DNA from: Minisyncoccota bacterium
GTDB taxonomy: Bacteria; Patescibacteriota; Minisyncoccia; Phycocordibacterales; UBA9973
Assembly (NCBI GenBank): GCA_018061145.1
Contig: JAGOUR010000001.1
Span: 875 to 64,874 of the forward strand
Length of the DNA: 64,000 nt
Reading direction: 5' to 3'
Shown: one piece after another, positions 6,004 to 55,091 of the stretch
How positions within the stretch are numbered: position 1 is the first letter of the stretch
Layout: every line of letters starts with the position of its first letter
Made by a program: the position numbers and the translations under genes
Notes under the pieces: model-generated
Database searches by the model: none
What the model saw: only the letters and a program-made list of their open reading frames with translations
Told to the model about the DNA's origin: nothing

Positions 6004-7320
6004 ATGGTAAAAAAAGTTGTACAAGATATAAATATCAAAAAACCAAAATTACTAAAATTTGATGAACCAAATGATTCAGTTATTTCTGGGGATTTAGATA
6101 CCGAGCAGAAATTTTCTGCTATATCTCAGATGCAGAGACGAAGACGCATACCTAGTACACCCATGGTAAAGAGAAAGAAGCTCCTGCCTAGATATTTCGT
6201 CTGGATCTTGGTAGCTTTGGTGATTGTATCCCTAGTATATGTATCTTATGCTTTTCTCCAAAAAGCGACAGTATCTATAAATACAAGGAAGCAGAATTTT
6301 ACTTTTAAGGAAGAGGTCTTTACTGCATACAAGCAAAATGAAAAAAAACCTCATTTTGAAATAATGATATTAAATGATGTATATAGTCGAAAGATTAACT
6401 TTATCGACCCCAAAGACGTATCCATAAAGGCACACGGTGTCGTATTTATAAAGAACGAATACAGCTCAAAGCCTCAAAAAATACTGATAAATACTAAAAT
6501 AGCCGATGATTACGGGAGGCTATACACTACAGATAGCACTGTGACAGTGCCTGGTTTTACAAAAGTAAAAGATAAAGTAATCCCTGGATCGACCGCTGTA
6601 AAAGTCACAGCTGTTTCTGCTGGGGAGGAGCACAACACCTCATCAAAAAATTTCTTGATACCTTCTTTTGAAAAGACAGATAAATATACAAAAATTTATG
6701 CTACAGCTCTCAATCCCATCATAGGCGGAGCATTAGGCAAGCTATACAGTCTGGGTCCAGTGGAGATTGGCACATTAAATGCCGAAGCGAATACATTCTT
6801 TCGAGAACAGGCAATGCGTAAACTCTCGGCTCAGATACCCCCTGGGTACATATTGTATCCCGGAGCTACAAATTTCTCTTATTCATTCAATCAGGACTCA
6901 AAATCTAAAGATGCAATAGGTGAAGTCGAGATATCTGGTGTAGTGAATGCTATTATCTTTAAAATTGAAGATTTGGAAAAGGTATTTATAAAGAGAGCTG
7001 GTCCGAACATAAAAGATTCTGAGTACTCTGAAATATCAGTAGAAAATATGGACTCTTTTATTCTAAAGCTTTCTGATAAGAACAAAATCATATCAAAAGA
7101 CATGAATGAGGTATCATTTAGTCTGACTGGTGGTAGTGTCCTGATTTGGAGCCCTGACATAGATCAGATCAGGCAATCCATCCTGGGTCTGGATGTTAAA
7201 GACCTAGGCCAAAAGACTCAAGAGGATCCCGGAGTGGTCGGTTCTAGTGTAGAATTCCTGCTACCTTTCCAAGACAAAATACCAAACAAAACCCATATGG
7301 TTGATGTTAAAACATATTAA
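6004..7320 (+). CDS. Single-pass membrane protein, possible partner of the FtsA/PilM-like protein
   Basis: Arg-rich cytoplasmic N-terminus, one TM helix (YFVWILVALVIVSLVYVSYAF), large extracytoplasmic domain. Starts 4 nt after the upstream gene. Confidence 0.35.
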   Translation: MVKKVVQDINIKKPKLLKFDEPNDSVISGDLDTEQKFSAISQMQRRRRIPSTPMVKRKKLLPRYFVWILVALVIVSLVYVSYAFLQKATVSINTRKQNFTFKEEVFTAYKQNEKKPHFEIMILNDVYSRKINFIDPKDVSIKAHGVVFIKNEYSSKPQKILINTKIADDYGRLYTTDSTVTVPGFTKVKDKVIPGSTAVKVTAVSAGEEHNTSSKNFLIPSFEKTDKYTKIYATALNPIIGGALGKLYSLGPVEIGTLNAEANTFFREQAMRKLSAQIPPGYILYPGATNFSYSFNQDSKSKDAIGEVEISGVVNAIIFKIEDLEKVFIKRAGPNIKDSEYSEISVENMDSFILKLSDKNKIISKDMNEVSFSLTGGSVLIWSPDIDQIRQSILGLDVKDLGQKTQEDPGVVGSSVEFLLPFQDKIPNKTHMVDVKTY

Positions 7321-7362
7321 TTTGACTGGAAAAGATATTTAAAGTATAATGGCAGTACATAC

Positions 7363-7581
7363 ATGAACGAAATTAAAACTGATGAAAATACAAAGGTAGG
7401 AGTCGTGATTGAATCTCTACCCAATACATTGTTCCGAGTAGATCTAGGTGATGACAAAGTTCTGATATCTTATCTGTCTGGAAAGATGCGTATGAACAGA
7501 ATAAAGGTCCTAGTGGGGGATAAAGTTGAGGTTTTGATCGATCCATACGGTGGTAAGGGTCGCATAACAAAGAGACTTTAA
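7363..7581 (+). CDS. infA: Translation initiation factor IF-1
   Basis: 72-aa S1-like protein with conserved VIESLPNTLFRVDLGD and RMNRIKVLVGDKV motifs. Confidence 0.9.
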   Translation: MNEIKTDENTKVGVVIESLPNTLFRVDLGDDKVLISYLSGKMRMNRIKVLVGDKVEVLIDPYGGKGRITKRL

Positions 7582-7712
7582 AATCCACACATTGTACGCC
7601 CGTATAAGGGCTTGCAATTTTTATTAATATAGTGTAGTATTACCCGATATACGCTTACAAGAAAAAGTACAGGGTTTTGGCCCTTGATTTTGTCTGTCGT
7701 TTGAATAAATTT

Positions 7713-32237: not shown

Positions 32238-32720
32238 ATGAACAAGAAAAGAACTTGGTCTGAAACACAACTTAAAGATGCAGTTAAATCTTCTAAGAGT
32301 TACAGAAATGTGATTAGTCTTTTGGGGTTAAGGCCTACTGGTGGAAATTATGATCAAGTAAAGAAATATATTAATCAATATGGTTTTTCAACTAAACATT
32401 TTACTGGGAAAGTCTGGAATAAAGGATTAAAATTCCCCGATCGGAATTATATAGAATTAAAAGACATTCTTGTTCTAAATAGCACCTACCAAAGTCATAA
32501 GTTGAAAAAAAGACTGTTTTCGGTTAAACTAAAAGAACCTAAATGTGAAGAATGCGGCTGGGCCAGAATATCTCCAGATGGTAGACTTCCTTTGGAATTA
32601 GACCATATTAATGGAAATAGGCATGATAACAGGATAGATAATTTAAGAATTTTATGTCCGAACTGTCACAGCATGCAATCAACACATAGAGGTAAAAACA
32701 GAAAAGCCCGAGTGGTGTAA
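32238..32720 (+). CDS. HNH endonuclease (homing-endonuclease-like)
   Basis: C-terminal HINGNRHDNRIDNLRILCPNCHSMQ HNH motif. The 3' end overlaps the tRNA-Leu by 15 nt. Confidence 0.7.
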   Translation: MNKKRTWSETQLKDAVKSSKSYRNVISLLGLRPTGGNYDQVKKYINQYGFSTKHFTGKVWNKGLKFPDRNYIELKDILVLNSTYQSHKLKKRLFSVKLKEPKCEECGWARISPDGRLPLELDHINGNRHDNRIDNLRILCPNCHSMQSTHRGKNRKARVV

Positions 32721-32789
32721 TTGGTAGCCACGAGAGACTTAAAATTTCTTGTCATTTATGACGTGCGGGTTCGACCCCCGCCTCGGGCA
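32706..32789 (+). tRNA. tRNA-Leu (anticodon TAA)
   Basis: Manual fold: 7-bp acceptor GCCCGAG/CTCGGGC. U8. D-loop AATTGGTAG. Anticodon stem AGAGA/TTTCT with loop CT-TAA-AA. Long variable arm GTCAT-TTAT-ATGAC. T-arm GCGGG-TTCGACC-CCCGC. Discriminator A. Confidence 0.8.
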
Positions 32790-32794
32790 CAAAT

Positions 32795-48663: not shown

Positions 48664-50034
48664 ATGCCACTAAAATTAAAAAACACACTAACTAAGACAG
48701 AAGAAGTTTTCGAGCCTATCAATAAAGACTCTGTATCTTTGTATACTTGTGGACCCACAGTCTACAATTATCCCCACATAGGAAACTACCGTGCCTATAT
48801 CTTTGGCGACATATTAAAGCGTACACTTTCATATCTAGGCTACAATGTGAAGCACATCATGAACATCACAGATATAGACGACAAGACTATCCGTGATTCC
48901 ATAGCCGAGGGCAAGACTCTGGCAGAATTCACAGAATTCTACACACAGGAATTTTACAAAGATATCGAAGCAATCCATATCGTACGTGCAGAAAAATACA
49001 CAAAGGCTACAGATTACATCGATGAGATGGTCAAGATGATAGAGACTCTGATTGAGAAAGGTTTTGCATACAAGGGAGACGACGGGTCTGTGTATTTTGA
49101 CATCGCAAAGGATACCGAGTACGGAAAACTATCTCACTTTACCCTCTCTGATTTAAAAGAGAATGCAAAGGGTCGCATGTCTGCTGATGAATACGACAAA
49201 GAAAATGCCCAAGATTTCGCATTATGGAAAGCTTGGGATGAGAATGATGGTGAAGTATTCTGGGAGACCAGTCTAGGAAAAGGACGCCCTGGCTGGCACA
49301 TAGAATGCTCTGCGATGAGTATAGCCGAGCTCGGTGACCATATCGATATCCATACCGGTGGAGTCGACAATATGTTCCCCCACCATGAAAATGAAATCGC
49401 TCAGTCAGAATGCGCCACAGGACACCAATTTGTAAAATACTGGATGCACAATGAGCACCTGATGGTAGATGGCAAGAAGATGAGTAAATCAGCTGGCAAT
49501 TTCTATACCCTCCGTGATATTGAAAAGCTTGGTATCACACCTATGGCGTATCGTTATTGGCTCTATATGGGCAATTACGACACGAAAGTGAACTTTACGA
49601 TCGAAGCTGTGTCTGGCGCACAAACTGCCCTAGAACGCCTTTATACTGCATATAGAGATTTAGGAGATAATTCGGAAGTCGGACTTCCGAATATGGATTA
49701 CAAGACAAAATTCACCGAATTTATCAGTGACAATCTAAATACTCCAAAAGCTTTAGCCTTAGTGTGGGAATTGGTAAAAGATGAAAGTGTGTCCCCTATG
49801 GATAAAAAAGCTACCTTACTTGATTTTGATAAAGTCCTCGGTTTTGGATTTGAAAATATAAAAGAAGAGACAGATATAGAGATACCATCTGAAATATCAA
49901 AATTGGCAGAGACTCGTACGCAGGCTCGCAATGAAAAGAATTGGTCCGAGAGTGACAAACTCCGCGACCAGATCAAAGATCTCGGCTACGAAATCAAAGA
50001 CACAGACACAGGATACAAAATCTCAAAAATATAA
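48664..50034 (+). CDS. cysS: Cysteine--tRNA ligase
   Basis: CGPTVYNYPHIGNYR (HIGH) and KMSKSAGN. Confidence 0.9.
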   Translation: MPLKLKNTLTKTEEVFEPINKDSVSLYTCGPTVYNYPHIGNYRAYIFGDILKRTLSYLGYNVKHIMNITDIDDKTIRDSIAEGKTLAEFTEFYTQEFYKDIEAIHIVRAEKYTKATDYIDEMVKMIETLIEKGFAYKGDDGSVYFDIAKDTEYGKLSHFTLSDLKENAKGRMSADEYDKENAQDFALWKAWDENDGEVFWETSLGKGRPGWHIECSAMSIAELGDHIDIHTGGVDNMFPHHENEIAQSECATGHQFVKYWMHNEHLMVDGKKMSKSAGNFYTLRDIEKLGITPMAYRYWLYMGNYDTKVNFTIEAVSGAQTALERLYTAYRDLGDNSEVGLPNMDYKTKFTEFISDNLNTPKALALVWELVKDESVSPMDKKATLLDFDKVLGFGFENIKEETDIEIPSEISKLAETRTQARNEKNWSESDKLRDQIKDLGYEIKDTDTGYKISKI

Positions 50035-50178
50035 TAAGTATAATATTACGATATGTCAATGTTGACATTGAGTGAAAAATATTGATATTCTTTTACTAAG
50101 AGTAGTTTTTTGACAATTTTTCTAAAACACCCCGTTAAAGGACGGGAAAGCTTGTATGCAAGTAAAAAAGTTACAGTT

Positions 50179-50352
50179 ATGGCAAATTCAAAACAAAAAC
50201 AAGCACCTACAAGAGTTATTACTCTCTGTGGGTCACAGGGCTGTTGCCCTACAGTATCCTTTTTTAAAAAAGGTATTGTAATCAAGGATGATTTTGGTGG
50301 TTCAGTAAAACTCACCAGAAAACAATTTATGGCAATGTTAAAAACAAGGTAA
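50179..50352 (+). CDS. Small Cys-cluster peptide, candidate RiPP (sactipeptide-like) precursor
   Basis: 57 aa: MANSKQKQAPTRVITLCGSQGCCPTVSFFKKGIVIKDDFGGSVKLTRKQFMAMLKTR. Followed by a terminator and then a radical SAM/SPASM gene. The longer ORF 50110-50352 starts at a TTG. Confidence 0.35.
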   Translation: MANSKQKQAPTRVITLCGSQGCCPTVSFFKKGIVIKDDFGGSVKLTRKQFMAMLKTR

Positions 50353-50365
50353 TTGCCGCCAACCA

Positions 50366-50406
50366 AAAAAGCGTGGATTGATTTTTATTAATTCACGCTT
50401 TTTTTA
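50366..50406 (+). terminator. Terminator/attenuator between the small peptide gene and the radical SAM gene
   Basis: aaaagcgtg-18 nt loop-cacgctttt plus T-run. Confidence 0.65.
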
Positions 50407-50430
50407 AAGAAAATTAAACCCAAAAAAAAT

Positions 50431-51762
50431 ATGAATGCGATAAAATTTTCTCGTTTTCTTAAATTTTATGAGAACGAAGAATCTGTTGGAATTTTTCATC
50501 AGATTAACCCTGATCCAATTGTTTTGAAGAAGAGTAACTGGGAATCTTTCAAAAAAGACCCATCTTCTTACCCTAGATTAAAAAAAATATTTACAGAAAG
50601 AGGACTAATTATTAAAGACGATTTCGAGGATGAAAAATTGATTAATGAATCAAAGATGGAACTCATTAATAGATTGAATGATCCGAAGATTTTGTATTTA
50701 ATGACAGCCCAACACTGTAATATTAAATGTGACTACTGCCCTATCCCAGAGATTGCAAAAAATAAAGGTAACAATCTTTTATCCAAAGAAAATGCAATTA
50801 TGGGTCTAGAATTATGGTTTAATCATATTAAATCCACAAATTACACTGGACCACTCTGGCTTATTTTTTATGGAGGTGAACCGTTGTTAAATTTCACAGT
50901 AATTAAAGAAGTTGTTGACTACCTACAAGAAAAAAAACAGAGAGTGATCTTTCCAAACATTAACATAATGATTGCAACAAATGGATTACTGATTAACGAA
51001 GAGATTATGTTTTTTTTCAAAAAGTACAATTTTTTTGTTAGTATTGGAATTGATGGATTTACCCCAGAAACAAATTCCAAAAGGTTAAACTCTGCCGAAA
51101 ATGACACCTCATTTAACTTAATAAGCAAAATTAAAACGATGTCAGATATGGGAATTACGATTGGAGCATCAGTTAGCATTACAGAAGATAATTTGAATGA
51201 AATTAAAAATTTCTCAACTAAGTTAAATGAAATTGGCGTAACTGATTTTGGTTTTAATTTTTTAAAAGGTAAAGCACTCGAAAATCTTAAAATATCCAAT
51301 GGAGAGTATTTCAAAAGAGCAAGTAATGCAATTATTGAAAACTATCAAATGTCGGAGGGAAAATCTATAGATGCTCAGATTAATCGTAAAATTAATTCCT
51401 ACAATGACAACTTACCCTTCCCAGCAGACTGCACATGCTATGGCAATCAAATAGTAATACAGGCTGATGGTTACATTACGAATTGCCCATTTTACAGAAA
51501 TGACATTAAGCACATTTCTGAGGTTGATAAGAACTTTCTTATTCACGAAACAAAAGAGGTGCAAGACTGGAGAAATCGTCTACCACTTTTAAATGATAAA
51601 TATTTAAAAGAATCATCTATGAGTCTATGTGGTGGTGGATGTACCTGGAGTCAATTAGATCAAAATAAAGAAATGCTAACAATAGATGAAAATCAGTTTA
51701 TTTTTAGTGAAATAACTTTAAAATATTTAATCTTTAAAACACAAGAGGAGGAATTAATATGA
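50431..51762 (+). CDS. Radical SAM enzyme with C-terminal SPASM domain (peptide-modifying maturase type)
   Basis: CNIKCDYC (CxxxCxxC), GGEPLL, and C-terminal CTCYGN...NCP...CGGGC cysteine cluster. An 85-aa N-terminal extension could be a RiPP recognition element. Confidence 0.75.
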   Translation: MNAIKFSRFLKFYENEESVGIFHQINPDPIVLKKSNWESFKKDPSSYPRLKKIFTERGLIIKDDFEDEKLINESKMELINRLNDPKILYLMTAQHCNIKCDYCPIPEIAKNKGNNLLSKENAIMGLELWFNHIKSTNYTGPLWLIFYGGEPLLNFTVIKEVVDYLQEKKQRVIFPNINIMIATNGLLINEEIMFFFKKYNFFVSIGIDGFTPETNSKRLNSAENDTSFNLISKIKTMSDMGITIGASVSITEDNLNEIKNFSTKLNEIGVTDFGFNFLKGKALENLKISNGEYFKRASNAIIENYQMSEGKSIDAQINRKINSYNDNLPFPADCTCYGNQIVIQADGYITNCPFYRNDIKHISEVDKNFLIHETKEVQDWRNRLPLLNDKYLKESSMSLCGGGCTWSQLDQNKEMLTIDENQFIFSEITLKYLIFKTQEEELI

Positions 51763-52562
51763 GAGATATTAACTGCGCAATTATCGGTGGATCTGGTTTG
51801 TACGAATTAGACAATTTTAATATTGTCAAAAAAATACCAATGAATACACCTTATGGTAGTCCATCAGATGAGATTACAATCTACGAGGATGGTGGGAAAA
51901 AATTTGCTTTTATTCCCCGTCACAACAAGGACCACACAATCCCTCCGCACAAAATACCCTACAAGGCTAATATTTACGCCCTAAACAAACTAGGAGTTAA
52001 AAATATTTACTCAACATGCATTGCTGGTAGCCTTAAGAAAAGTATTCTACCTGGAAGTTTTGTGATTATTGATCAAATTGTGGACTTTACCTGGGGAAGA
52101 GATGATTACTTTGAAGTTGATAAAAACTTTAAGCATATTGCATTTGCTTCACCTTTCTGTTCTCATTTGAAAGATCAAGTAATAAAGGCATGCAAAAAGC
52201 AAGGAGTAAAATCTAAAAATAAAGGTACAGCCGTAATTATTCAAGGGCCTCGCTTTTCAACATTAGCGGAAAGTCTTTTTTACATGAGCAATGGATGGGA
52301 TATCATAAACATGACACAATACCCAGAAGCTTATTTTGCTCGAGAGTTTGGAATGTGCTACTCAACACTTGCAATGATTACAGATTACAACCCGGGTGTT
52401 TTAGAAAAATTTCAGATGAAAAGAAAAAATGCTGATAGTATTAAGAAAATACTAAATAATAGCATTGATTCTTGTAAAAGTATTTTACACTTACTAGTTC
52501 AAGATGACCAAAACCATAAATGCACTGAGTGCTATTTTGAGTCCTATCTTGAAAAACTTTAG
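51759..52562 (+). CDS. mtnP: S-methyl-5'-thioadenosine/5'-deoxyadenosine phosphorylase (PNP/MTAP family)
   Basis: AIIGGSGL and TPYGSPSD motifs. The start overlaps the radical SAM stop (ATGA). GAGGAGG Shine-Dalgarno 7 nt upstream. Confidence 0.7.
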   Translation: MRDINCAIIGGSGLYELDNFNIVKKIPMNTPYGSPSDEITIYEDGGKKFAFIPRHNKDHTIPPHKIPYKANIYALNKLGVKNIYSTCIAGSLKKSILPGSFVIIDQIVDFTWGRDDYFEVDKNFKHIAFASPFCSHLKDQVIKACKKQGVKSKNKGTAVIIQGPRFSTLAESLFYMSNGWDIINMTQYPEAYFAREFGMCYSTLAMITDYNPGVLEKFQMKRKNADSIKKILNNSIDSCKSILHLLVQDDQNHKCTECYFESYLEKL

Positions 52563-52568
52563 AAAGAG

Positions 52569-52595
52569 GCCCTTGCTGATGCAGGGGCTTTTTTA
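52569..52595 (+). terminator. Rho-independent terminator
   Basis: gcccttgc-tgat-gcaggggc plus T6 run. Confidence 0.75.
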
Positions 52596-52608: not shown

Positions 52609-53370
52609 ATGAGATCAAATCAAAAAATTAGTGAGGTTTTTAAAAAAATAGAACAGTCTAATAAAGCTTTGGGGCTAGTTCTTTATGGGTCAAAATCAGA
52701 CAATACTGAAAATAAATTTAGTGATTATGACATTTTGGTTGTTTTACCAAATGAAAACAATAAAATAGATTCATCTTTTACTTACATAGAAGGAATCCCG
52801 ACCGATATATTTTATTGCACAAAAGATGAGTTGATTTCAATACCCACTGTAATAATTGCAAATACAAAAGAAGATTGGCTCGTCAGCTGGATTCAGAATG
52901 GTAAAATTATATTTGAAAATGAAAATGTTTTTAAAAGTATTAAAAATAAAGTGATAAAACGGGTATTCACTCCTGAAAATCTAAATAACTGTATATACAA
53001 AATAAATCATAATTTCATACAAGATTCTAGATATTTCAAAATGCGAGGTAAAAAATTTAGAGAGATCTATAGAATAAAATTTACACATAGTATCAATAAT
53101 ATTCTATATTCATTCTTTTGTATAGAAAAAATACCTTGGCGTGGTGAAAAGTGGGCTGTTTTACTCATGGAAGTAAAGTATAAAAAATTTTACAAACAAT
53201 ATACGAGCTGCTTAAATGAAAAGAGTGAGGAAATACAATTTAGTAAGTACAAAAAGATTGTGGAAGATATTACATTACCATTTGGTGGTATTTGGTCAGA
53301 TGAAATTTTTGCTGACTATGTAAACAAGAAAAGTGATGAAAATAGTATATTAAAAAGTATTATTAAATAA
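52609..53370 (+). CDS. Pol-beta superfamily nucleotidyltransferase, ANT(4')/Lnu-like
   Basis: LGLVLYGSKSDNTENKFSDYDILVV (GS-x10-DxD) N-terminal nucleotidyltransferase domain plus a C-terminal helical domain. 253 aa, as in kanamycin nucleotidyltransferase. Confidence 0.5.
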   Translation: MRSNQKISEVFKKIEQSNKALGLVLYGSKSDNTENKFSDYDILVVLPNENNKIDSSFTYIEGIPTDIFYCTKDELISIPTVIIANTKEDWLVSWIQNGKIIFENENVFKSIKNKVIKRVFTPENLNNCIYKINHNFIQDSRYFKMRGKKFREIYRIKFTHSINNILYSFFCIEKIPWRGEKWAVLLMEVKYKKFYKQYTSCLNEKSEEIQFSKYKKIVEDITLPFGGIWSDEIFADYVNKKSDENSILKSIIK

Positions 53371-53411: not shown

Positions 53412-55091
53412 TTATTTCACAGCGTCCAATTCTATAAAGAACGTAGAACCTTTACCCATACCTTCTGAATTCACCCCTACGTGACCCTTGTGTGCATCTA
53501 CAATCTCTTTTGCTAGATATAGACCGAGTCCTGATCCACTAGTGTTCATGCGAGCACCCTCGCCACGAGCAAATTTCTGGAATAGTGTAGCTTTGATTTC
53601 TGGGGATACTCCCATACCAGTATCTTTTATCTCTACGAGAACCTTATTGTCTTTATTAGATAAAGTTACTTCAATACTACCCTGTTTTGTATATTTAATA
53701 GAATTATCGATCAGGTTTAGTACCACCTGGCGGAGCTTTTCTTTGTCTCCATGAACTTTGTGATTATTCCCATCTTCACTATAAGTCAATTTCAATCCCT
53801 TCTTGCCTGCCGTAATAGACAGGTCTTCGGATGTAGTCTTTACTATCTCTGTCATACTGAAATCCACCATCACATACTTCATTCCACCAGATTCAATTTT
53901 GGACACATTGAGCAAGTCCTCTACGACAAGGGTCAGATTTTGACTAGATTGGAATATTCTATCCACTGCTTCTTTTGCTTTTGGTCCAATCTCTCCAAAG
54001 TCACCCTCGACTACCATAGATGCATAACCCTTTATAGCCGTGAGCGGTGATCGGAGCTGATGTGAAGCCAGTGAAAGGAACTCTGTTTTTAACTTATCAA
54101 CATTTATTAATTTTGCATTTGATTCTTCGAGCTTGATATTTGATTCTTCGAGTCTGAGCTTTGAAGACTCCAGCTGTACAGACAATTGCTCGATACGCAC
54201 ACGCTGATCACTCTCCTTCTTTAGATTTCTGTATAGGATGATAGACAACCCTAGTGTCAGAGCTACAGTTACAATAGTCAACAATGTATCTGCACCTCCA
54301 TTGATAAAGAATAATTGCCCACCCATGAGAATAACAAGTCCTCCTACTAAATAGTGAGTACCCAGCATGTTGAAGTGAAATATATCCAGTTCAAATACAG
54401 CATAGATAATAGCGATAAGGAAAAGAGGCATAGCAAACAAACTATACAGATTGTATTCATATACACCCGTAACAGACGCTATGTATTCTGTAATTCCAAA
54501 AATAGACAAGAACAAGAATATAGATCCTAGAACGATTAAATCTGCTTTTTTATCTTCCTTGGGTTGATCAATAAAAAATGCTCTGATCATATAGCCCGAT
54601 ATTGTAAGACCAACGAGACCCTCAATTACAAGCTTGTAGATATCTAAAGTATTATTATTTAATGCTTCACAAAATGAGTGATCAAAACCAGTAACGGAAT
54701 TATTTGTAATTGTAATCACAAAAGGTACTACAAGAGCTAATATAAATAATATTTTTGTATACTTATGTATATCTCTTTCGTAAATAAAAGTAAGCACAAA
54801 ATAGAGAGACAGCAAAAAGAAAACAATCTCAATATAAGGCAAAACAGACCAGAAAGAATAAACAAGGTCGTAATTTGTTGATGTCCAAATAACAACATCT
54901 CCAATAAGCCAAACACAGAAAGAGAAAATAAATGCTAAAAATAGCTTAGAAAATAAGTTAAATTTAGCTTTAAATAATATAAATAAAGACAAAGACAAAG
55001 ATAGCAATATTGGAACTATGTGTGAGTATTTTGCCAAAAGCTCAAGACTTCCCCCAGTCACACTTGTACAAGTATTAATTATTTCATTCAT
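53412..55091 (-). CDS. Membrane-bound sensor histidine kinase
   Basis: About 8 N-terminal TM helices, coiled coil, H-box LSLASHQLRSPLTAI, HATPase_c (GMGVS..., GSGLGL). Confidence 0.8.
   Translation of the reverse strand: MNEIINTCTSVTGGSLELLAKYSHIVPILLSLSLSLFILFKAKFNLFSKLFLAFIFSFCVWLIGDVVIWTSTNYDLVYSFWSVLPYIEIVFFLLSLYFVLTFIYERDIHKYTKILFILALVVPFVITITNNSVTGFDHSFCEALNNNTLDIYKLVIEGLVGLTISGYMIRAFFIDQPKEDKKADLIVLGSIFLFLSIFGITEYIASVTGVYEYNLYSLFAMPLFLIAIIYAVFELDIFHFNMLGTHYLVGGLVILMGGQLFFINGGADTLLTIVTVALTLGLSIILYRNLKKESDQRVRIEQLSVQLESSKLRLEESNIKLEESNAKLINVDKLKTEFLSLASHQLRSPLTAIKGYASMVVEGDFGEIGPKAKEAVDRIFQSSQNLTLVVEDLLNVSKIESGGMKYVMVDFSMTEIVKTTSEDLSITAGKKGLKLTYSEDGNNHKVHGDKEKLRQVVLNLIDNSIKYTKQGSIEVTLSNKDNKVLVEIKDTGMGVSPEIKATLFQKFARGEGARMNTSGSGLGLYLAKEIVDAHKGHVGVNSEGMGKGSTFFIELDAVK

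Follow-up and report, generated by a model that had tools for sequence, protein, structure and literature searches.

A three-gene cassette of Patescibacteria encodes a conserved small cysteine-loop protein, a radical SAM enzyme with peptide-maturase architecture and an MTAP-type phosphorylase

The locus lies in a 64-kb stretch of DNA from a Minisyncoccota bacterium (hereafter, the window) and consists of three genes on the same strand, encoding a small protein, a radical SAM (rSAM) enzyme and an MTAP-type nucleoside phosphorylase. The features of the locus and its immediate surroundings are as follows, with the evidence for each given last.

50062..50091, + strand: sigma-70-like promoter candidate (TTGACA, 18 nt, TG-TATTCT) 5' of the small gene; consensus scan
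50179..50352, + strand: gene of the 57-aa small protein; ORF, homologue alignments, synteny, AF2
50365..50405, + strand: intergenic terminator-like hairpin with A-tract and U-tract; RNAfold, orthologous loci
50431..51762, + strand: candidate radical SAM peptide/protein maturase, 443 aa; ORF, motifs, Pfam
50431..50685, + strand: RRE-like N-terminal domain of the rSAM enzyme, residues 1-85; predicted βββ-ααα
51745..51751, + strand: GAGGAGG Shine-Dalgarno sequence of the MTAP gene, within the end of the rSAM gene; read from the sequence
51759..52562, + strand: MTAP-type nucleoside phosphorylase, 267 aa; PF01048, NCBIfam, PDB, synteny
52563..52594, + strand: terminator-like hairpin with U-tract closing the operon; RNAfold
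52609..53370, + strand: nucleotidyltransferase-fold protein, 253 aa; PF01909, PF18765

The features named in the first-pass annotation of this DNA, namely, the 57-aa ORF with its cysteine cluster, the hairpin with its U-tract, the 443-aa rSAM enzyme, the MTAP gene and the GAGGAGG element, are all present where it placed them. The small ORF runs from ATG 50179 to TAA 50352 and encodes the sequence MANSKQKQAPTRVITLCGSQGCCPTVSFFKKGIVIKDDFGGSVKLTRKQFMAMLKTR. Position 50110, given previously as the start, is an in-frame TTG from which an 80-aa product would result; ATG 50179 is favoured because homologues measure 55-65 aa. These homologues are 30-57% identical to the window copy in protein comparisons and form a family of at least 436 clusters. 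Residues C17, G18, C22, C23, P24, D37, D38, G41 and L45 are invariant in the alignments, and position 50 is occupied by an aromatic residue in most homologues. Conservation spans the entire central 35 residues, the variable part being the N-terminal tail. The three cysteines (positions 17, 22 and 23) are all found in the N-terminal half, with C22 in the context C-C-P-T-V, and the gene is present in one copy per locus. Protein-level conservation, together with the presence of the small gene in each of the 51 cassettes that include upstream DNA, is beyond what is expected by chance, and by these comparisons the ORF is a real, conserved gene. The window protein has no match in Pfam or NCBIfam, Pfam searches at E values up to 10 with 37 family members returned scattered chance matches only, and a PDB profile search gave no match below E 0.6. 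AF2 predicts a ββββα fold (pLDDT 84), with the Cys motif in the loop that joins β1 to β2 and DDFGG at the turn between β3 and β4; in a meander sheet, these two elements would share one edge. The substrates of rSAM enzymes in RiPP pathways are mostly disordered, and the predicted fold counts against the explanation favoured below.

Some relatives of the small protein are leaderless and start right at the Cys motif. Two of these are encoded in phage contexts (L086, located beside portal and head genes, and L087) and have the same Cys and DDYGG motifs, with no rSAM gene nearby. The motif must therefore have some rSAM-independent function, for example, metal binding, and these phage homologues also count against the favoured explanation. 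A cysS gene upstream of the locus prompted the idea that the small ORF is a leader peptide for attenuation by cysteine supply. This was rejected because a 35-residue protein core is conserved, phage copies exist and cysS is not a conserved neighbour. Likewise, the resemblance of rSAM residues 54-65 (RGLIIKDDFEDE) to KGIVIKDDFGGS of the small protein was treated as a chance likeness, since its E value is 0.07 and the family consensus lacks it.

The rSAM enzyme contains the motif C96-x3-C100-x2-C103, which is invariant across 28 homologues, GGEPLL at residues 148-153, and the cysteine-containing segments C334-T-C336, N-C352-P and C400-GGG-C404. It belongs to the radical SAM superfamily (PF04055, 53.5 bits versus a gathering threshold of 29.5), and at least 120 enzyme clusters are homologous to it over the full length, with identities of 33% and above. 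The N-terminal extension pointed out in the first-pass annotation is real and has a predicted βββ-ααα topology, which is that of an RRE. A sequence search with the first 90 residues of 10 orthologues found no PqqD/RRE match, an observation that counts against the favoured explanation. SPASM domains are characterized by a 7-Cys motif (CX9-15GX4C, CX2CX5CX3C and a final C) and two auxiliary [4Fe-4S] clusters. The cysteines for which a C-terminal SPASM-like cluster had been proposed are present, but the resemblance is partial: the enzyme has no PF13186 match in Pfam at E<=0.1, only C334, C336, C352 and C404 are invariant among the auxiliary cysteines (at position 400, S, C, A and H all occur), and alignment to CteB reveals the absence of the CX2CX5 part and of the terminal Cys. 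Given that just the four Aux-I cysteines are conserved, the auxiliary domain fits a truncated, Twitch-like SPASM domain retaining Aux I only.

Nearly all of the best NCBIfam matches to the enzyme are RiPP or protein maturases, and the enzyme scores under the family cut-off wherever one applies. The FibroRumin maturase leads (TIGR04136; 146.5 bits, E 1e-42, residues 58-434, cut-off 400), followed by PapB (NF047865; 99.6 bits, E 2e-28, cut-off 340), CcpM (90 bits), HxsB (77 bits), anSME (TIGR03942; 76.8 bits, cut-off 349), QhpD (76 bits, E 2e-21, cut-off 453) and the SCIFF maturase (TIGR03974; 72.8 bits, cut-off 425). Among PDB profiles, CteB (E 1.6e-23) and anSME (E 1.5e-20) match the enzyme, and SkfB does so weakly (E 1e-8, residues 176-363). 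The anSME alignment begins at query residue 89, as anSME does not have the N-terminal domain of the rSAM enzyme. The proposed assignment to the AlbA/ThnB-type sactisynthases does not hold: RumMC (NF035951) ranks 25th with 42 bits versus a cut-off of 720, and it is the sole sactisynthase model among the best 25 NCBIfam matches listed. Judged by sequence, the enzyme falls below every curated family cut-off and has the architecture of peptide maturases, and its grouping with the latter, rather than with families acting on large substrates, is supported. Thus, neither of the two outcomes regarded in the first-pass annotation as fatal to its proposal was encountered, since the enzyme groups with maturases and the small ORF is conserved beside it.

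Analysis of related loci shows that the three genes form a stable cassette. In 50 of the 51 cassettes with upstream DNA, the small gene is located directly upstream of the rSAM gene on the same strand; the exception is L030, where it is inverted and found ~2 kb downstream. MTAP follows the rSAM gene directly in all loci with enough downstream DNA (48/48), either overlapping or abutting it. Most of the loci belong to Patescibacteria/CPR, including Pacebacteria, Uhrbacteria, Berkelbacteria, Zambryskibacteria, Giovannonibacteria and others. Distant rSAM homologues (24-28% identity) are accompanied by neither the small gene nor MTAP, and the sole distant locus examined (L060) has CxCxC-rich small ORFs upstream instead. 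The cassette loci contain no other conserved candidate small ORF, and clustering of neighbours across 52 loci yielded no protease, exporter or immunity gene. The only recurrent neighbours in these loci are MTAP, an ABC-F ATPase, a uridine-kinase-like protein and a nucleotidyltransferase. No curated family exists for the peptide or for the enzyme of the cassette, and literature searches returned nothing relevant on the cassette and no description of either protein.

The promoter candidate upstream of the small gene has 10 out of 12 consensus matches and an extended -10 TG, a consensus match rather than functional evidence. The 5' leader structure is unremarkable (z = -0.7), and an Rfam search of the leader and the intergenic region found no riboswitch or known RNA. 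The terminator hairpin that had been proposed between the small gene and the rSAM gene is borne out by folding: its 18-bp stem runs into a U-tract, and its predicted stability (dG -20.3/-22.2 kcal/mol, z = -5.27, RNAfold) is equalled by none of 200 shuffled sequences. A simple terminator scan did not include it among its calls. A structured, usually GC-rich hairpin is found at the equivalent intergenic site in most orthologous loci. Because the distance from the hairpin to the rSAM ATG is 26 nt, no promoter fits between them. The hairpin is probably a leaky terminator that sets the ratio of peptide to enzyme. A second hairpin (dG -21.7 kcal/mol, z = -4.26, RNAfold), which was absent from the list of the first-pass annotation, follows the MTAP gene.

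The ATG of the MTAP gene overlaps the TGA of the rSAM gene (ATGA), so that the two are translationally coupled. The product belongs to the PF01048 superfamily (112 bits versus 25 in Pfam) and stays under the equivalog cut-offs of TIGR01694 (239 versus 274.85 bits) and NF005876 (253 versus 306 bits). Archaeal MTAP structures 1v4n and 2a8y match at E ~1e-56 (3.5e-57 for 1v4n). Its regions for binding phosphate and ribose are conserved, and the base-recognition motif, canonically TDYD, reads TDYD or TDWD in most cassette orthologues and TDYN in the clade of the window. MtnP cleaves 5'-deoxyadenosine, which radical SAM enzymes release as a by-product and which inhibits them (PMC8102628), and the role of the cassette MTAP is presumed to be phosphorolysis of 5'-deoxyadenosine and/or MTA. 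The cassette differs from MtnP-dependent salvage in that its MTAP is coupled to one specific radical SAM gene, an arrangement for which literature searches found no precedent, and in that the genes of the downstream shunt (MtnA, aldolase) are lacking. Alternatively, the protein may be a general MTA/nucleoside salvage enzyme that is simply syntenic with the cassette; a uridine-kinase-like gene recurs nearby (after the ABC-F gene in 11 loci, with a homologue within 4 kb in 16).

Among characterized systems, the cassette resembles the SCIFF/ranthipeptide pairs (ScfA-ScfB, CteA-CteB and freyrasin PapA-PapB), in which a small Cys peptide is likewise encoded beside a maturase consisting of RRE or RRE-like, rSAM and auxiliary-cluster domains, in a minimal cassette without a dedicated protease or exporter. 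Lineage-wide conservation is another common trait; SCIFF is found throughout Clostridia, a pattern that has been read as arguing against an antimicrobial role. Both PapB/freyrasin and QhpD make Cys-to-Asp links, and the cassette peptide has an invariant DD. The cassette also differs from the SCIFF/ranthipeptide systems. The three cysteines of the small protein form a CGxxGCC loop, instead of CX3D repeats or the six cysteines within ~45 residues, in a C-terminal core, expected of SCIFF precursors. In addition, the enzyme lacks a second auxiliary cluster and scores far under the PapB and SCIFF maturase cut-offs, the peptide has a predicted fold, the operon includes MTAP and the hosts are CPR rather than Firmicutes. 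QhpD, whose model matches the cassette enzyme at 2e-21, is a radical SAM enzyme that installs intramolecular Cys-Asp/Glu thioethers in the small protein QhpC, which is retained in the cell, where it functions as a subunit, instead of being secreted as a natural product. Unlike in the QhpD-QhpC system, neither dehydrogenase subunits nor a QhpE-type protease are encoded near the cassette, and the small protein has no detected partner enzyme. FibroRumin, the best-scoring curated family, also adjoins Cys-rich small ORFs (L060); however, its relatives are 24-28% identical and have neither the CGxxGCC peptide nor MTAP.

From the gene order, conservation, domain architecture and motifs of the cassette, we infer a substrate, a chemistry, a role for MTAP and a location of the product. 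The explanation that we favour, and to which we assign an even chance, is that the operon of small protein, leaky terminator, rSAM maturase and MTAP makes a modified intracellular small protein, the adjoining 57-aa protein being taken as the rSAM substrate by adjacency alone. The RRE-like N-terminal domain of the enzyme would dock the small protein via the conserved β-strand that precedes the Cys loop. SAM would be cleaved at the [4Fe-4S] site formed by C96, C100 and C103, and the resulting 5'-deoxyadenosyl radical would abstract a hydrogen, so that one or more of C17, C22 and C23 could be joined to an acceptor carbon. The likeliest acceptor would be within the invariant DDxGG loop, which the prediction places next to the Cys loop, and the product would carry a thioether from Cys to Asp, of the kind made by PapB and QhpD, and not a sactionine at an alpha-carbon. 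The nearest characterized relatives form non-alpha thioethers (PapB, CteB and QhpD), cyclophanes (ChlB) or formylglycine (anSME); because the fold neighbours catalyse four different chemistries, the thioether is only the most plausible guess. The intergenic hairpin would allow an excess of substrate over enzyme. Each turnover would free 5'-deoxyadenosine, a radical SAM inhibitor, which the coupled MTAP would phosphorolyse to adenine and 5-deoxyribose-1-phosphate. By analogy with SCIFF peptides or the QhpC subunit, and unlike a secreted bacteriocin, the product is probably an intracellular stapled mini-protein with a lineage-wide function. More speculatively, and with a rather modest chance of being right, the cassette could yield a radical-SAM-stapled, folded ββββα mini-protein or a peptide-derived cofactor that serves as a lineage-wide cellular component of CPR, its maturation being hard-wired to 5'-deoxyadenosine removal by a dedicated MTAP and its unmodified scaffold having been borrowed by phages.

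Alternatively, the small protein might not be a substrate, being a stand-alone mini-domain with a Cys3(+Asp) site that binds a metal, an Fe-S cluster or nucleic acid and acts as an operon partner or regulator, with the rSAM enzyme modifying another target encoded elsewhere, be it a peptide, a protein or a small molecule. The confidently predicted ββββα fold, the leaderless homologues in phage modules devoid of rSAM and the possibility, suggested by the AF2 model, that both invariant loops form one site on the same sheet edge are in line with such a role. It is nonetheless unlikely in view of the strict 1:1 presence in 51/51 cassettes, the attenuator-like hairpin between the genes, the RRE-like domain of the enzyme, whose nearest families all act on an adjacently encoded small peptide or protein, and the lack of an alternative conserved small ORF in the loci. 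Less probable still is that the same substrate undergoes a different chemistry, such as anSME-like oxidation of C22 to formylglycine, C-C cyclophane formation, epimerisation or cyclopropanation. The anSME models score 77 bits, the invariant C22-C23-P24 supplies the C-x-P of the sulfatase motif (C-x-P-x-R), and position 50 is usually aromatic. However, where the sulfatase motif has Arg, the peptide has a hydrophobic residue; the simplest role for three invariant cysteines is that of thioether donors, and the best-scoring characterized sequence families, PapB and CteB, make thioethers. Furthermore, anSME enzymes, which recognize C/S-x-P/A-x-R in their substrates, have two auxiliary clusters and no RRE, whereas the cassette enzyme has an extra N-terminal domain and one auxiliary site fewer.

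The first-pass annotation had regarded the locus as a candidate sactipeptide-type RiPP locus with an enzyme of the AlbA/ThnB type. Read as a classical bacteriocin locus, it would encode a leader-plus-core precursor bridged in a hairpin from Cys-S to alpha-carbons by an AlbA/ThnB-like sactisynthase, and the product would be cleaved, exported and active on other cells. The layout of the peptide, with its cysteines confined to the first half and acceptor-like residues conserved in the second, would agree with this, as would the terminator between precursor and enzyme, common in RiPP operons, and the combination of RRE-like domain, rSAM core and auxiliary Fe-S domain that the enzyme shares with AlbA, ThnB, SkfB and RumMC. 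An ABC-F gene of a ribosomal-protection-like family, found after MTAP in 32 of the 52 loci (with a homologue within 4 kb in 36), could in principle provide self-immunity to a ribosome-targeting peptide. We consider this explanation very improbable, given that export, protease and immunity genes are lacking from the 52 loci, the RumMC score is below those of ranthipeptide-type and other maturases, a single auxiliary cluster site is conserved, the peptide is predicted to fold, is present in one copy, has some relatives devoid of a leader and is conserved at its centre with a variable N-terminal tail, the opposite of what is usual for leader and core, and the cassette is spread across many CPR lineages, not just among scattered close relatives. 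The ABC-F protein has no membrane domain and is probably neither an integral member of the cassette nor an immunity protein, because none is encoded within the 64-kb window and its gene, where present, starts a median of 136 nt past MTAP.

Patescibacteria have tiny genomes with very few biosynthetic clusters, and a cassette that is intact across many such lineages likely serves a CPR need; the earlier remark on the rarity of RiPP clusters in reduced genomes misleads here, since this cassette is widespread in CPR. The lack of protease and exporter genes and the SCIFF-like spread make the cassette look more like a source of a lineage-wide modified mini-protein than of a classical antibiotic peptide. 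Genome-mining tools could label such loci as ranthipeptide or sactipeptide clusters, a label that the evidence suggests is premature. The cassette appears to be an uncommon natural example in which a radical SAM enzyme and the disposal of its inhibitory by-product are genetically coupled, and its enzyme, a single-auxiliary-cluster relative of SPASM maturases, is useful for mechanistic comparison. With three genes in ~2.4 kb, it is directly testable by co-expression and mass spectrometry. The nucleotidyltransferase encoded downstream in the window is a possible member of the system, and 10 of the 52 loci have a homologue of it no more than 4 kb away from the cassette, on either side.

The radical SAM gene of the window belongs to a three-gene cassette, in which it is preceded by the gene for a 57-aa Cys-cluster protein and followed by a gene for an MTAP-type protein. 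The locus contains the following features.

Features of the cassette and its flanks
48664-50034, cysS
50062-50091, sigma-70-like promoter match
50179-50352, 57-aa ORF (small protein)
50365-50404, 18-bp hairpin with U-tract (dG about -20 to -22 kcal/mol, z = -5.3)
50431-51762, radical SAM ORF, 443 aa
51745-51751, GAGGAGG preceding the MTAP ORF
51759-52562, MTAP-type ORF, 267 aa, its ATG overlapping the radical SAM stop codon (ATGA)
52563-52594, second terminator-like hairpin (dG -21.7, z = -4.3)
52609-53370 (+), nucleotidyltransferase-fold gene (PF01909/PF18765)

Among 200 shuffled sequences, none folded as stably as the first hairpin, which ends 26 nt before the radical SAM ORF. Exact-match database entries carry the small ORF as 'hypothetical protein' and the enzyme as 'radical SAM protein'. 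The motifs from which the first-pass annotation had proposed a sactipeptide-type RiPP locus are all present, namely, CGSQGCC (residues 17-23) in the small protein and C96xxxC100xxC103, GGEPLL, CTC, NCP and CGGGC in the enzyme.

The small ORF is a genuine, widely conserved gene tied to the radical SAM enzyme. An initial search returned three homologues with 50-57% identity, and the order small ORF, radical SAM gene, PNP-family gene was found on the contigs of one peptide homologue and one enzyme homologue. A profile scan of one genome per species for the enzyme returned 80 loci. Wherever the enzyme is at least about 30% identical (loci L001-L047, L052, L063, L073 and L079), the arrangement is the same, with a small-ORF homologue upstream and an MTAP homologue immediately downstream. 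According to the peptide HMM, each of the 51 cassettes for which upstream DNA was included has a single copy. Neither the peptide nor MTAP was found with enzyme relatives of 24-28% identity (L053-L083, mostly from Firmicutes); in the one inspected, L060, the small ORFs that lie upstream are CxCxC-rich instead. The peptide family comprises at least 436 clusters at 90% identity and 542 representatives at 50% identity, and none of its clusters has a Pfam domain or a name beyond 'hypothetical protein'. Invariant positions are C17, G18, C22, C23, P24, D37, D38, G41 and L45, the N- and C-terminal tails being the variable parts. Most hosts are MAGs of Patescibacteria (CPR), including Pacebacteria, Uhrbacteria, Zambryskibacteria, Giovannonibacteria, Berkelbacteria and Minisyncoccales. 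Locus L030 is the only one where the small gene (7311-7583, minus strand) is not directly upstream of the radical SAM gene; here it is encoded ~2 kb further downstream, in the opposite orientation. Full cassettes also occur on two contigs of 64% GC from MAGs labelled Pseudonocardiales (L033 and L036; JAFAPC010000178.1 and JBOHFR010000032.1), with an ABC-F gene divergently upstream. Thus, unless these are binning errors, the distribution of the cassette extends beyond CPR.

The enzyme, a peptide/protein maturase, lies in the SPASM/Twitch clade and falls within no curated family. Pfam recognises Radical_SAM and Fer4_12, with no match to the SPASM domain, and every NCBIfam match is below its cut-off: FibroRumin maturase (146.5 bits, cut-off 400), PapB ranthipeptide maturase (99.6, 340), CcpM (89.7, 500), HxsB (77.3, 370), anSME (76.8, 349), QhpD (76.1, 453), SCIFF maturase (72.8, 425) and RumMC sactisynthase (42, 720). 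A PDB search with the family profile retrieved CteB (5wgg, 1.6e-23), anSME (4k36), TigE (8vpo), ChlB (9gm3) and SkfB, and SuiB and SkfB come further down among the neighbours of the structure model. AlphaFold modelled the enzyme with confidence (pLDDT 91.7, pTM 0.90). In this model, residues 10-82 are predicted to form three strands followed by three helices, the topology of the peptide-recognition domain (RRE), with no PqqD-type match at the sequence level. Beyond the SAM-cluster triad, the only cysteines invariant in 28 homologues are C334, C336, C352 and C404, while C400 varies. When aligned with CteB, C334 and C352 correspond to the CX9-15GX4C element and C404 to the last cysteine of CX2CX5CX3C; the CX2C and the terminal cysteine are absent. 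The four invariant residues correspond to the set for the first auxiliary Fe-S cluster (Aux I), as judged from the known ligand sets of anSME and CteB. Hence, the Aux II site appears to have been lost and the domain is Twitch-like rather than a full SPASM. A stretch of the N-domain of the enzyme (residues 54-65, window 50590-50625), RGLIIKDDFEDE, resembles KGIVIKDDFGGS of the peptide (7/12 identical, E 0.07), a likeness that is probably due to chance, because it is absent from the family consensus.

The MTAP-type protein matches solved archaeal MTAPs (E 1e-56), slightly under the NCBIfam equivalog cut-offs. All cassette MTAPs share a C-terminal CxC...YY motif. The base-recognition motif, TDYD in solved MTAPs, is TDYD or TDWD in most of them and TDYN in the clade formed by the window protein (residues 208-211, window 52380-52391) and those of L001, L002 and L032. 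These features may reflect an altered base specificity. MtnP cleaves 5'-deoxyadenosine, an inhibitory by-product of radical SAM enzymes, to adenine and 5-deoxyribose-1-phosphate (PMC8102628). That an MTAP is translationally coupled to a specific radical SAM gene, the two overlapping or abutting in nearly all loci, is most simply explained by clearance of this by-product; the protein may otherwise be a general salvage enzyme with conserved synteny. In most orthologous loci, too, the small gene and the radical SAM gene are separated by a strong hairpin, as a rule GC-rich and often followed by a U-run, its sequence itself not being conserved. In the window, no space is left for a promoter between the hairpin and the radical SAM gene, so that expression of the enzyme and MTAP presumably depends on read-through and is lower than that of the small protein. 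Such a difference fits a substrate-to-enzyme relationship.

The system operates like a radical SAM RiPP or protein-maturation pair. In the best reading, whose probability we put at about even, the radical SAM enzyme modifies the adjacent small protein, MTAP clears 5'-deoxyadenosine and the product stays in the cell. An RRE-like maturase with a single auxiliary cluster would act on the invariant cysteine loop of the small protein, most plausibly installing one or more thioethers that tie this loop to the DDxGG loop beside it, as Cys-Asp links like those made by PapB and QhpD; MTAP would take away the 5'-deoxyadenosine; and the product, by analogy with SCIFF and QhpC, would be a cellular, lineage-wide component. 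We are more confident of the enzyme being a peptide/protein maturase, moderately confident that its substrate is the small protein, and less so of the particular chemistry.

In an AlphaFold model built from a 40-sequence alignment (pLDDT 84, pTM 0.62), the small protein looks folded, with predicted β-strands at residues 12-15, 25-28, 33-36 and 42-45 and a C-terminal helix at 47-55. The CGxxGCCP motif forms the β1-β2 loop and DDFGG the β3-β4 turn. In a meander sheet, both would share one edge, a placement that we infer from this model, and the invariant segments would come together as a single site. Distant members of the family (47-56 aa) start directly at 'LCG', without the N-terminal extension. 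These leaderless homologues begin LCG..CCP and retain DDYGG; one directly follows phage portal and head-completion genes (L086, 1661-1804), and others belong to arrays of tiny genes (L087, 1048-1218, where the genes overlap, and L084, 534-701), neither array giving Pfam matches for its tiny genes. No radical SAM gene was seen on the three contigs, and the scaffold with its Cys/Asp site thus exists independently of this enzyme. Its occurrence without the radical SAM gene in L086 and L087 is the main argument for the alternative that the small protein is a metal- or nucleic-acid-binding partner and not a substrate, which we regard as unlikely. In P0245, a metagenomic homologue of 116 aa, the domain is duplicated in tandem within one ORF, and loss of the CC pair is seen in the second repeat ('RGHNCYLRIDF...IIKDDLLGTVRL').

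A modification of the same substrate by other chemistry, e.g. formylglycine or cyclophane formation, is quite unlikely in our estimate. The fold neighbours of the enzyme catalyse at least three different reactions: CteB, itself a SCIFF/ranthipeptide maturase, forms thioethers, ChlB cyclophanes and anSME formylglycine. The chemistry is therefore not readable from homology. A secreted sactipeptide bacteriocin, along the lines of the first-pass annotation, is improbable: the enzyme scores below the sactisynthase cut-off, and no protease, membrane transporter or immunity-like gene recurs in the 52 loci. Nor does the enzyme reach the cut-offs for ranthipeptide/SCIFF maturases, FibroRumin or anSME, or contain a full SPASM domain. 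The cassette differs from known systems in its peptide family, truncated auxiliary domain, apparently folded substrate, MTAP coupling and CPR-wide distribution, and our literature searches turned up no account of it. Its interest lies mainly in its conservation in minimal genomes and in being directly testable.

In most relatives, drawn from L004-L052, MTAP is followed by a ribosomal-protection-like ABC-F ATPase (NF000355, 425 bits, above the cut-off of 380; median gap 136 nt) and then by a uridine-kinase-like protein (e.g. L006, 6293-7966; L009, L011). The ABC-F protein may be functionally linked to the cassette, e.g. as immunity to a ribosome-targeting product. The whole 64-kb window has no ABC-F gene, no uridine-kinase-like gene and no other CxxxCxxC ORF. 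Ten of the 52 loci, the window among them, have a nucleotidyltransferase homologue no more than 4 kb from the cassette, on either side and either strand; the window protein (52609-53370) gives a weak match of the MntA/ANT(4') type. Apart from a tRNA-Leu(TAA) at 32706-32790 (+), the window contains no tRNA and no Rfam match. The 559-aa ORF at 53412-55091 (-) has a long hydrophobic, probably multi-pass N-terminal half and C-terminal motifs that look histidine-kinase-like by eye; its homologues are near the cassette in seven loci, probably reflecting shared synteny.
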